Assembly: GCA_964016885.1 (NCBI GenBank)
Contig: OZ024748.1
Coordinates: 14,756,001 to 14,820,000, forward strand
DNA length: 64,000 nt
Direction: 5' to 3'
Origin: Eledone cirrhosa
Taxonomy: Eukaryota
Shown: positions 19,866 through 59,550 of the stretch, one piece after another
Position numbering within the stretch: position 1 is the stretch's first letter
Layout: each line of letters starts with the position of its first letter
Position numbers and translations under genes: made by a program
The notes under the pieces: model-generated
Told to the model about the DNA's origin: nothing
Databases searched by the model: none
The model's input: the letters and a program-made list of their open reading frames with translations, nothing else

Positions 19866-20207
19866 GAAGGCACATGGCTCAGTGGTTAGAGCATTGGCCT
19901 TGCAATCGAAAGGTTGTGAGTTCAATTCTCAGACCGGGTGATGTGTTGTTTCCTTGAGCAAGACACTTTATTTCACATTGCTCCAGTTTACTCAGCTGTA
20001 GAAATGAGATGATAGGGACTGGGGTCCCTATCATTCCACTGTAAAGTGGTCGTGCAGGTGCCACGACAAACAAGCACCCAGCACTCACTGTAAATGAGGT
20101 TGGTGTTAGGAAGGGCATCCAGCTGTAGAAATCAAGCCAGAATCAGTTCCCATCCCACCCTTGCAAGCAGGGAAAAGTGGACGTAAAATGATGATGATGA
20201 TGATGAT
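19866..20207 (+). mobile_element. Full-length CORE-like SINE with RTE-derived tail
   Basis: A and B boxes, CORE-like block, 11-bp hairpin at 20009-20034, ggaagggcatccagctgtagaaa module, tail cccttgcaagcagggaaaagtggacgtaaaat(gat)n. Confidence 0.92.
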
Positions 20208-27117: not shown

Positions 27118-27161
<44 letters not shown>

Positions 27162-27349
27162 GAAACACACAGATACATGCGGACACACACATATATACAT
27201 GAATGCATCCGCACCCAACTGTGAGTTAAGGGTGCCAACTTCACCGATGTTGCTCAATGAATGACTGGGACAGACCAATTCAGTTTGAACTTTTTGGGAT
27301 TCTTTCTCACGTCGTGTAGACGCGTTCTTGAGACCAGTAAAATGAGGTA

Positions 27350-27437
27350 TCCTCTTGATAAGTCGGCAGACCTCGCAAGGACTCTATATCTTTGATATAT
27401 TGTTTTTGTTTATGCCACGAAACTACGTAGTCGAGGA
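27350..27437 (+). ncRNA. Type I hammerhead ribozyme, U3-A8 core variant with extended stem II
   Basis: Stem I tcctc/gagga; core TTGATAA; stem II gt(c)ggca/tgccac; GAAA; palindromic stem III actacgtagt; GUC cleavage triplet. Confidence 0.8.
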
Positions 27438-27506
27438 ATTTAGGAACAGTTTAGGTATGATACATTTTATTACTAATTATATCTAAATGTTTCTTCTCTC
27501 TTCATA

Positions 27507-27540
<34 letters not shown>

Positions 27541-40577: not shown

Positions 40578-40580
<3 letters not shown>

Positions 40581-42360
40581 ATGAAATATAAGAATCAAAG
40601 AACTGTTCAAAACATTATTGTGCTTACAGCTGTTTCCTCCAAACCGAGGTTTGGATTCTTCGGAGCAATTTATTAATGCATGGACAGTTATATGACCTCC
40701 TTTTCAGCCGAGGGACATACCAATACATATTCAAACATTGATACATATTCAAACATTGTGGGTCAACATTCATTACAAAATTTAGAGTGGCAGTACACAC
40801 TTCGAGATTACATTTATATTAATAGGTACAATCAAAAATCAAAGATATAGGTTAAAGTACAACATGAAGATAAGTGGTTATATAGTGCAAATGTTATATG
40901 TGTGGCACGCATGTGCGTCTTGTTTATATAGTGTGGCAGAGAGATATGTGTGGTAGAGGCACTTAGGTAGGTAAATAAGAGTGTTAGGTTGGTAGATCTG
41001 GTGGCAAAGTCTTTATATGATTGATGTAGTCTGTGTGTGGAGAAATATTATAAGCATTAAAGATAGGACTGCGGATTGACCTTTGGCCTGCCTGGGGACG
41101 ATTTTCTTTCGACATCCAATGTAGCAAGCGATGACCCAGATCTTACCAGAGATCATTGGGTCCTGAAGCAATCCTGCAATCACCGCGCCTGGTTATATGA
41201 GCAGACTACAACCACAGAGATCATTAATTTAGAATCCTCGCTCATCATCTATAATTTCCATTTGTAGCACCTTAAGATGGGTTAATCCACCTTAATAATA
41301 ATATGATCACCTTCAGCATAATTTAGTTAAACTACTCTATAGTTAGTACACTTTATGCTTTAATAGTCTCTTTTGGAGGGTGCACCTCACCATAGAATTT
41401 AGGGTCCATATTGGGACACATTTTAATGGCTAGATATAGAAACCCCAGAGTTACCTCCCCGCATGCATTAACTCCCCTTAGCCACACACACACTTCCGGT
41501 ATTCAATGGCGTCTCTCGAAACGTAACAACCTCCTGTATCGAACTAAAGAACACCAGACTACGATCTCTAACTGGATTGTCGTGGATTATGTGAAAGGCA
41601 TATAATCGAAATATACACTCCCTTGATCATGAAAATGCCGAAGTACATGAATTACTTGACATCCCTGCGTTGTGCATCTCCAATACTTATAACACTTTTA
41701 ATGCTTGCACTATCTTTAATGCTTATAATATTTCTCCACACACAGACTACATCAATCATATAAAGACTTTGCCACCAGATCTACCAACCTAACACTCTTA
41801 TTTACCTACCTAAGTGCCTCTACCACACATATCTCTCTGCCACACTATATAAACAAGACGCACATGCGTGCCACACATATAACATTTGCACTATATAACC
41901 ACTTATCTTCATGTTGTACTTTAACCTATATCTTTGATTTTTGATTGTACCTATTAATATAAATGTAATCTCGAAGTGTGTACTGCCACTCTAAATTTTG
42001 TAATGAATGTTGACCCACAATGTTTGAATATGTATCAATGTTTGAATATGTATTGGTATGTCCCTCGGCTGAAAAGGAGGTCATATAACTGTCCATGCAT
42101 TAATAAATTGCTCCGAAGAATCCAAACCTCGGTTTGGAGGAAACAGCTGTAAGCACAATAATGTTTTGAACAGTTCTTTGATTCTTATATTTCATATAAC
42201 TGCTCTGTAAATCAGCTGATGTTTTTACATTGAGCTACTTAACTTACTGGTAATAAGGTAGTAATACATTACTGCCTACCACTATTTAGGGTGTGTGTAA
42301 AATACTTACAACTGCTTAAGGTTTTGTGTTTACATAACCATAAATAGTATAACTAATACT
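40578..42360 (+). mobile_element. Probable Penelope-like element remnant: inverted pseudo-LTR pair with hammerhead and 3' tail
   Basis: 489-bp inverted arms at 40578-41066 and 41710-42198, HHR-like motif at 42109-42155, ~160-bp tail homologous to 58925-59060, (TA)n on both sides; no intact RT or GIY-YIG ORF seen. Confidence 0.7.
42109..42155 (+). ncRNA. Minimal type I hammerhead-like ribozyme; mirror copy at 40621-40667 on minus
   Basis: Stem I tgct/agca; core CCGAAGA (U4C); 8-bp stem II tccaaacc/ggtttgga; GAAA; palindromic acagctgt; GUA. Confidence 0.7.
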
Positions 42361-55612: not shown

Positions 55613-56368
55613 TATATATACATATATATATTAAATATACACACATATATATACACACATATATATATACATATATATACATACATATATATATATACAT
55701 ACATAATATATATATACAAATATATATATACATACATATATATACATATATATATATGTACATATATATATACAAATATATATATATATACATATTTCGT
55801 TTCTGAATTTGTTTAGCAAGATTCTTTATCTGAAATCGTGTGTTGAAACCGATATTGTTATACTTTGGGAGGGTCATGTTGCCAATAAGAAACACACGCA
55901 CCAGTTGCTTTCACTTCAATTTAATTAATATATATTTTATAAATTTACAAATTTATAAATTTCTGGTTGGTTGGTTGGTTCCACAACCAGATAAGTTGTT
56001 TATATATATATAGTCATAGTTCTTTCGTCACACACTCTGTGACCTCTTCAGTGACTGGGGATTTCTTTCTTCGTTTCTGTGCCTTTCCTTTTCTTCTATC
56101 CTACGCCATTTTGTTTGTGTGTGGGTCGATAAAATAAAGTACCAGTAATGTACTGTGTAATTGCTGGCCTATGTGCCAATAGGAGAAACAATTATATAAT
56201 CAATAATTTCTCTGAAGCAACCGGATGAAACATGTGTAAGAGTTATATAAAGAACTTGTTTTTTAGCGGCTTGTAATTCCTTATTGATGACATTATATAA
56301 CCCACACACAAACAAAATGGCGTAGGATAGAAGAAAGGAAAGGCACAGAAACGAAGAAAGAAATCCCC

Positions 56369-56415
56369 AGTCACTGAAGAGGGTCACAGATGTGTGTGAC
56401 GAAAGAACTATGACT
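56369..56415 (+). ncRNA. Minimal type I hammerhead-like motif; mirror copy at 56012-56056 on minus
   Basis: Stem I agtca/tgact; CTGAAGA; stem II gtcaca/tgtgac; GAAA-g-aa-CUA. Confidence 0.6.
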
Positions 56416-56856
56416 AGTATATATATAAACAACTATCTGGTTGTGGAACCAACCAACCAACCAGAAATTTATAAATTTGTAAATTTATAAATATATATTA
56501 AATTAAATTGAAGTGAAAGCAACTGGTGCGTGTGTTTCTTAATGGCAACATGACCCTCCCAAAGTATAACAATATATATACATACATATATATATATATA
56601 CACATATATATATATATACATATATATACACATATATATATATACACATATATATACACATATATATATACACACACATATATATATACATATATATACA
56701 CATATATATATACACATATATATATATATACATACATATATATATATAACATACATATATATAATATACATATATAATATATATATACATATATATACTA
56801 CATTAATATATATACATATATATATATATACACACATATATATATTACACACACAC

Positions 56857-59356: not shown

Positions 59357-59550
59357 AACCAGTAAGACCCCGACAGCTGAGCTCAAGCCGTTTCGACGGC
59401 TAATTCTGGACTAATTCCAGAATTAGCCGTCGAAACGGCTTGAGCTCAGCTGTCGGGGTCTTACTGGTTCCTATTACCCACTCTACTACCTCAAGTATTG
59501 AGTACTTTGGTGCGTTATGGTCCACCTGGTTCCTTACCACATTTCCTTCG

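Follow-up and report, generated by a model that had tools for sequence, protein, structure and literature searches.

The hammerhead motif at 27350-27437 of the window, by which we mean the whole 64-kb stretch of DNA that was analyzed, is carried by a variant of an already known type of genomic parasite and does not represent a host switch. As the likely explanation, we propose that this predicted hammerhead lies in a truncated copy of a non-LTR retrozyme and that a borrowed Penelope-like RT/endonuclease pastes the element into (TA)n, probably from a re-ligated circle. The window copy itself is a 5′-truncated, two-armed insertion of a 590-bp non-coding tandem unit. With one ribozyme and a partial unit, and without the means to release a monomer, it is probably an inert dead end, and because it carries only one ribozyme, it is unable to dimerize in cis. 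The single locus in the window is of little importance by itself; the evidence given below comes from the window copy and from its relatives in the same genome.

The window copy and its repeat family

A descriptor scan for hammerheads on both strands of the 64-kb window gave six matches. Only the match at 27350-27437 had a palindromic helix III and at least two pairs at every stem base, in agreement with an earlier note on this DNA, which had called it the best-formed hammerhead. Read off the letters, it is a type I hammerhead motif with a U3-A8 core, a palindromic helix III, and a 44-nt stem II extension, the insert between the stem II strands occupying 27369-27412. TCCTC/GAGGA, TTGATAA, stem II, GAAA, the palindrome, and GUC were all present as the note had described them. 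Two details were corrected: the upstream GAGG, which had been placed at 27345-27348, is located at 27344-27347, and the 44 nt, which had been thought to include small hairpins, form one long extension hairpin (pair probabilities of 0.89-1.0) with an internal loop. The surroundings had been described as a ~300-bp host segment between two (TA)n tracts. The flanking (TA)n tracts were found, but the segment between them is 351 bp long and consists entirely of mobile element, with no host DNA. The order of the parts in the window is (TA)n, an inverted arm running from unit position 245 to 107, a sense arm with unit positions 451-590 followed by 1-80, and (TA)n (Table 1). No second copy of the 590-bp repeat was found in the window or in the 10 kb on either side.

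Table 1. Features of the insertion in the window (positions of the window; unit positions are counted from the predicted cut) and of a young Hydra-type PLE in the same genome
Feature	Position	Strand	Remarks
(TA)n target microsatellite, left part	27121..27158		Overlaps the arm end through TA microhomology
Inverted arm of the insertion, unit positions 107-245; stops at the long fixed 3′ end	27153..27291	-	100% identity, 139 nt, to the unit from L020
Long predicted hairpin immediately before the long 3′ end	27164..27227	-	Folding: -36.7 kcal/mol for unit 140-247, z -3.9 vs mononucleotide shuffles
Sense arm, unit 451-590 then 1-80, 5′-truncated; stops at the short fixed 3′ end	27292..27512	+	98.6-98.8% to the L020 unit
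UGAGGU, predicted stem I-stem II pseudoknot, 5′ strand; contains GAGG 27344-47	27343..27348	+	Pairs with 27370-75 in 17/17 aligned copies; duplex -8.0 kcal/mol
Hammerhead stem I, 5′ strand (TCCTC)	27350..27354	+	Two pairs with compensatory changes between families
Catalytic core UUGAUAA, U3/A8 variant	27355..27361	+	1 deviation in 343 sites of 49 older copies
Stem II, GTCGGCA 27362-68 / TGCCAC 27413-18, one bulged C; internal loop; extension hairpin 27375-27409	27362..27418	+	Folding and alignment
ACCUCG, predicted pseudoknot 3′ strand in the stem II internal loop	27370..27375	+	Outer pair U-A, U-G, or C-G; five pairs invariant
GAAA 27419-22, palindromic helix III ACTACGTAGT 27422-31, GUC; predicted cut between 27432 and 27433	27419..27432	+	Descriptor scan, genomic counts, alignment
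Stem I 3′ strand GAGGA 27433-37 and predicted downstream hairpin based on it; ends 9 nt before the short 3′ end	27433..27503	+	-21.0 kcal/mol, z -4.7 vs mononucleotide shuffles
(TA)n target microsatellite, right part	27510..27537		Sequence
Young Hydra-type PLE	L271:1880-5613	-	Frameshifted in this copy; remnant in the window near 59400-59550

The window's own 3.0-Gb genome was searched with window 27160-27510 as the query. Near-identical copies were found on many contigs; all derive from a unit of 590-592 bp (range of 583-599 bp among the units measured) that repeats head to tail and contains one hammerhead. The exact helix III motif had 8,149 genomic copies compared with 7 for the reversed control, and the core motif had 6,487 genomic matches compared with 0 in the control. 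The hammerhead copies of the 590-bp repeat number ~8,000 genome-wide, and a chance origin is ruled out. Among the matches listed, the helix III loop was TACGTA in 96 of 100. At the family level, at least two consecutive units that each carry a complete type I hammerhead were present in L020, L061, and L081. The longest stop-to-stop frame in a natural dimer was 126 codons, the GC content of the unit was 0.42, and a search of the unit for a Pol III A/B box found none. When the whole unit was folded as a circle, the z value was -5.3 for the plus strand and -1.4 for the minus strand. Three related families were distinguished, namely the young F1, the older F2 (79% identical), and F3 (61%); these identities, as well as one of 65%, come from single representative units.

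Several members of the family deviate from this pattern. A long array at L019/L020 (G000:C1:166.38 Mb) contains two unit types, ~14 differences apart, in a repeating order. F1 variants without the inner stem II extension were observed at L141:2142-2951 (minus strand), where they stand in tandem with 565-bp spacing, and in L148; judging from these sequences, the inner part of the extension may be dispensable. A fourth related family, 70-80% identical and with the near-palindromic helix III loop TGAGCA, was found at L149:2613-2935 (minus strand). Both units at L013:1441-2477 share the core change of GAAG for GAAA, and this probably impaired hammerhead was nonetheless copied in tandem. A tRNA-derived SINE with a target duplication lies within stem II of an F2 copy at L073:2530-2925 (minus strand), and the same SINE accounts for two weak tRNA matches in the window at 19875 and 24858.

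Fold and conservation of the predicted ribozyme

Rfam reported no hammerhead at gathering over the window and none at E ≤ 10 over 27150-27520, returning only weak miRNA-hairpin matches, and the isolated 106-nt stretch was no more stable than shuffles (z -0.6). Therefore, the case for a hammerhead rests on comparison. Stem I and helix III were mostly unformed when the window copy was subjected to nested folding. Between 88 F1 copies, which were chosen on the helix III motif and include one locus entered twice, and 49 F2 copies, 3 of the 57 ribozyme columns differed, and pairing was kept in all three; 18 of the 45 flank columns and 12 of the 42 extension columns differed. In an alignment of the three families (17 hand-picked rows out of 176 extracted), 92.7% of the cells were paired compared with 32-53% in slid controls. 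Nine pairs changed on both sides, spanning stems I and II, the extension, and dimeric helix III, a count that was equalled by 69 of 500 shuffles and has only three lineages behind it. The earlier note had named covariation across genomic copies and conservation of the core among homologous copies as checks on the motif. The stems keep pairing between families through compensatory changes, and the core is invariant in all three families, in F3 by construction because that family was retrieved with a pattern containing the core.

The U3-A8 swap had further been taken as an argument for selection on function. The hammerhead is under selection, and U3-A8 is described as a natural, active hammerhead variant (PMC4209133, PMC3088659), but the swap is fixed within the family and does not covary, so that selection is shown by the stems and not by the 3-8 pair. 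C3-G8 was found in 0 of 100 core motif matches among those listed. The palindrome of helix III had suggested dimeric folding, and this was corroborated: the loop changes from ACGU to GUAC between families with the palindrome preserved, and in folding, helix III was stable only as a self-duplex (-12.9 kcal/mol), with no stable intramolecular hairpin. These energetics agree with the published view that animal type I hammerheads fold as dimers (PMC4209133). The features of a type I hammerhead were found in their U3-A8 form, comprising a conserved core with paired 3-8 and G10.1-C11.1, GAAA, the GUC triplet, and three helices with an open-ended stem I. We consider it highly likely that the lineage possesses a functional dimeric hammerhead.

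Just 5′ of stem I, UGAGGU (27343-48) is complementary to ACCUC(G/A) (27370-75), and the two strands can pair in all 17 aligned copies. Five of the six pairs are invariant, and hence there is little covariation. The conservation of the 12 nt of this pairing between F1 and F3 gave a p value of about 0.04; neighboring bases differ, and F3 was unselected on these strands. Stem I-stem II pseudoknots lie at equivalent positions and accelerate cleavage according to PMC3088659. UGAGGU/ACCUC(A/G) is a probable stem I-stem II pseudoknot, as predicted from pairing. The earlier note had instead seen a possible switch in this region, in which GAGG would pair with CCUC and compete with stem I. Such a hairpin does form in nested folding of the window copy, reaching as much as 0.89 when stem II and the downstream hairpin are in place, but it is not conserved across families, with an A-C mismatch in 27 of the 49 F2 copies and an absent or marginal hairpin in the F2 and F3 representatives. 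In the folding model, the hairpin at 27433-27503, which would take up the stem I 3′ strand, is a likelier off-switch than GAGG/CCUC. This downstream hairpin was also present in F2, and in F3 it was weaker and lacked GGGA.

Insertion ends and the template of reverse transcription

The insertions sit in (TA)n, and their 3′ ends are fixed at 80 and ~245 nt after the cut, each ~10 nt past a long predicted hairpin; hairpins similar to the one before the long end (27164-27227) were predicted in F2 and F3 too. The ends were first sampled at 51 loci taken in order from contig C1 (54 blocks, one duplicate). In this sample, 75 of the 84 3′ ends adjoined (TA)n against a background of 0.10, and 27 of the 30 two-armed blocks combined a long with a short end, whereas none had two ends alike. 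Genome-wide, exact junctions of the short end with (TA)n were found 2,715 times compared with 0 in the control; the 616 matches of the long-end pattern capture one spelling of that end and are not a count of long ends. In a second sample anchored at the short end (94 of 100 examined among the matches listed, 93 mapped), the partner arm ended long in 52 of 55 cases and short in none, and when the 59 new loci of this sample were taken alone, the partner was long in 31 of 32. Because the ends lie within (TA)n, target-site duplications are unreadable.

The 590-bp repeat showed 5′ truncation, partial tandems, an inverted arm, a tail at one end, and a microsatellite target, which are the marks of Penelope-type insertion. 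Penelope-like elements (PLEs) are described as inserting with a bias toward (TA)n, in the form of truncated tandems that lie next to an inverted copy and have their tail at one end (PMC8557442). One PLE protein has been shown in vitro to nick both strands and extend them, with the 'tail' delimited by two internal sites at which the RT begins (PMC11167929). It is very probable that the 590-bp repeat is a retrozyme mobilized by Penelope-like machinery.

With regard to the template, 89 of the 93 short-end arms crossed the cut site, 36 of them twice or more, with up to five laps. Such crossing means that a linear monomer fresh from cleavage is not the usual template, which must instead be a re-ligated circle or an uncut multimer. 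Units differed by 0.4% within an insertion compared with 1.9% between insertions, and 29 private variants common to all overlapping units were found in 17 of 65 insertions; the eight-unit, two-armed L081 had five private variants. The arm 5′ ends were evenly spread round the unit (KS p of 0.16). A 5′-end pile-up just after the cut, hinted at in the first sample, was rejected, as 5 of 89 ends fell in positions 1-30 compared with ~4.5 expected. Three of 219 passes (in L208, L216, and L061) stopped within 1 nt of the predicted cut, with 0.70 expected (p of 0.034), which may be a weak hint of RNA cleavage there in vivo. Of four sequencing runs that may be RNA or DNA, X2 and X3 yielded a single contig each, with a depth of 8 and lengths of 621 and 620 nt. 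This is the unit plus 30, the length that a closed assembly cycle would have. These contigs were not counted for a circle because a tandem DNA array gives the same. Runs X1 and X6 gave many variants, with (TA)n junctions at the two ends. In 8 of 9 Xenopus retrozyme dimers, no cleavage is reported in vitro (10.64898/2026.07.22.740005). On balance, we lean toward an RNA circle as the main template.

The alternative that survives best, although we hold it to be unlikely, retains the same element and enzyme and takes as template an uncleaved linear multimer from master arrays, so that no circle is needed and the hammerhead trims some ends or acts late. A precedent exists in PAc, which in vitro transposes without hammerhead cleavage and copies unprocessed RNA (PMC11167929). 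Mixed unit types occur within some arrays (L019/L020, L053), beyond what one monomer circle can yield, and the nearest other insertion is a median of 0.5% away, about as close as units within one insertion. The few cDNAs that end exactly at the cut are also what a trimmed linear 5′ end would give, but no position of the unit shows a 5′-end pile-up. Furthermore, private variants that occur in all units and both arms, such as the five in L081, would need many homogeneous long masters, and the fold is preserved across ~40% divergence.

If the template is a circle made by the hammerhead, the following course of events can be envisaged. In a transcript of two or more units, two hammerheads would dimerize via the palindromic helix III, braced by the pseudoknot, and cut at GUC. 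The hairpin just after the cut would then sequester the stem I 3′ strand and turn the ribozyme off, and the freed monomer would be ligated into a structured circle. As the insertion ends suggest, the Penelope-like protein would nick both (TA)n strands and start cDNA at two internal sites, one per strand; each start would lie ~10 nt past a long hairpin, and synthesis would continue for up to five laps round the template. The truncated products would be joined either to each other, back to back, or to the opposite end of the (TA)n.

A bolder form of this proposal, which we put forward tentatively and would not ourselves bet on, is twin-primed rolling-circle reverse transcription combined with an undescribed dimer-dependent, pseudoknot-braced U3-A8 hammerhead that is self-silenced by the downstream hairpin. 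One Penelope-like protein dimer would hold one hammerhead-made circle at its two hairpin-marked starts, both nicked (TA)n strands would be primed, and the circle would be copied in both target directions simultaneously. Were this true, the genome would be a fossil record of rolling-circle reverse transcription. Irrespective of this form, the young family, with its thousands of insertions, two nucleotide-precise starts, and strict rule of one end of each kind, provides a defined RNA, target, and read-out for testing circle versus linear templates in vitro, and this genome also contains a candidate enzyme clade.

Relation to known elements and other hammerhead insertions

By its testable features, and as far as sequence can tell, the 590-bp repeat is an animal non-LTR retrozyme. 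Like those elements (PMC7229834; 10.64898/2026.07.22.740005), it consists of non-coding tandem units that lack an LTR organization, with one type I hammerhead each and a GC content below 50% (42% here), occurs as dimers to multimers, is dispersed at high copy number, and has a structured plus-strand fold. The unit is 590 bp here compared with 150-450 in PMC7229834 and 51-972 in 10.64898/2026.07.22.740005. The repeat differs in having a U3-A8 core, a long stem II extension, and a predicted pseudoknot instead of the usual loop 1-loop 2 contacts of retrozymes. Strict (TA)n targeting, two fixed ends, and back-to-back arms were not found described for retrozymes in the portions of these two sources that were available.

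The repeat also resembles EN+ PLEs, especially the (TA)n-targeting Hydra and Naiad, and Poseidon PAc, for which 5′ truncation, partial tandems, an adjacent inverted copy, a one-end tail, two internal RT starts with a hammerhead just upstream of them, and microsatellite targets are described (PMC8557442, PMC11167929). Unlike EN+ PLEs, it contains no RT or GIY-YIG ORF, its tail is 165 nt and not 30-40, and no homology to a coding PLE terminal repeat was found among 270 loci. Among ribozymes, the PLE hammerhead variants of PMC4209133 share the U3-A8 core, a large bulged helix II, and a palindromic helix III for dimers, and the pseudoknotted hammerheads of PMC3088659 share a stem I-stem II pseudoknot of 5-6 bp. 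Unlike the hammerheads described in these two papers, that of the 590-bp repeat combines all of these features in one repeat-borne ribozyme with a 44-nt extension, and no Rfam model matches it. Each ribozyme feature has a precedent. No prior description of this family, its feature combination, unit size, or two-end rule was found in the literature, and the supplements of PMC7229834, PMC8557442, and the 2026 preprint may hold similar repeats or ribozymes. Because the ribozyme escapes Rfam, such repeats are probably under-counted. Both the genomic return of animal retrozymes and the role of the hammerhead in PLEs are treated as open questions in the literature (PMC8557442; 10.64898/2026.07.22.740005).

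It is very improbable that the unit is the terminal repeat of an autonomous PLE with unsampled ORF-bearing copies, the repeats being its truncated by-products. The insertion anatomy is that of PLEs (PMC8557442), whose terminal repeats have been reported as the source of retrozymes (10.64898/2026.07.22.740005). However, the head-to-tail junctions of the units recur after exactly 590-592 bp, over as many as five laps, and no ORF intervenes; the RT/EN fragments near some copies are set off by (TA)-rich DNA and have no sequence in common with the unit. Among the loci scanned, no ORF with RT and GIY-YIG was found in the unit or joined to it. A BLAST search of three units against 270 loci (1.1 Mb) returned only family members and microsatellite-like matches, with no sequence shared between the unit and any coding PLE, and no terminal repeat matching the unit was found downstream of other Hydra-type ORFs.

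Still less credible is a satellite, that is, a solo repeat expanded locally by unequal crossing-over, with a decaying and non-functional hammerhead. Unequal crossing-over has been proposed as a route to retrozyme arrays (10.64898/2026.07.22.740005), and one long mixed array exists at C1:166.38 Mb, but the thousands of dispersed short insertions with fixed 3′ ends, the strict long/short rule, and the compensatory changes between families speak against this origin. Equally hard to credit is a host regulatory ribozyme that is specific to this locus and controlled by the GAGG upstream of it. Nested folding of the window copy does populate the GAGG/CCUC hairpin, but this hairpin is not conserved. 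Moreover, thousands of other copies match the window copy at 98-100% identity, and it has no feature of its own.

For the retrozyme, a candidate helper is a young PLE in the same genome. Its unit is 3,634 bp long, and its U3-A8 hammerhead has a long stem II. The element targets (TA)n and has two fixed ends, as 18 of the 30 ends lie at 0, 11 at +80, and 1 at neither. The motifs of its ORF (RWR, DKT, CxCX5C, CxxC, and CxH) match the published list for the Hydra clade. Pfam and PDB searches of the Hydra-type ORF gave no match, and the clade assignment rests on these motifs. Many more distant relatives are present in the genome.

Other insertions with hammerhead-like motifs were observed in the window and elsewhere. 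At 55790-56575 of the window, another Penelope-type insertion with two arms lies in (TA)n. Each arm contains a hammerhead-like motif with a CTGAAGA core, at 56012-56056 on the minus strand and 56369-56415 on the plus strand, and one arm has a ~60-bp tail; a copy resembling this insertion is present in L013 near an RT fragment. The insertion at 40580-42360 of the window is likewise two-armed and is flanked by (TA)n tracts; its hammerhead-like motif is minimal (CCGAAGA core, palindrome CAGCTG), and one arm bears a ~160-bp tail. A separate ~316-bp tandem family with a compact U3-A8 hammerhead per unit extends over at least 8 kb in L142 (G000:C3:114922000-114931900) and L143. More U3-A8 hammerhead families, with a canonical-size stem II and a palindromic helix III, were found in L124-L134, L146, and L147, and the corresponding canonical-stem-II U3-A8 pattern had 153 matches genome-wide compared with 14 in the control. 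In L140, L144, and L145, two first-half cores (CTGAAGA, then TTGATAA) share one GAAA and stem III, possibly forming a nested or permuted ribozyme.
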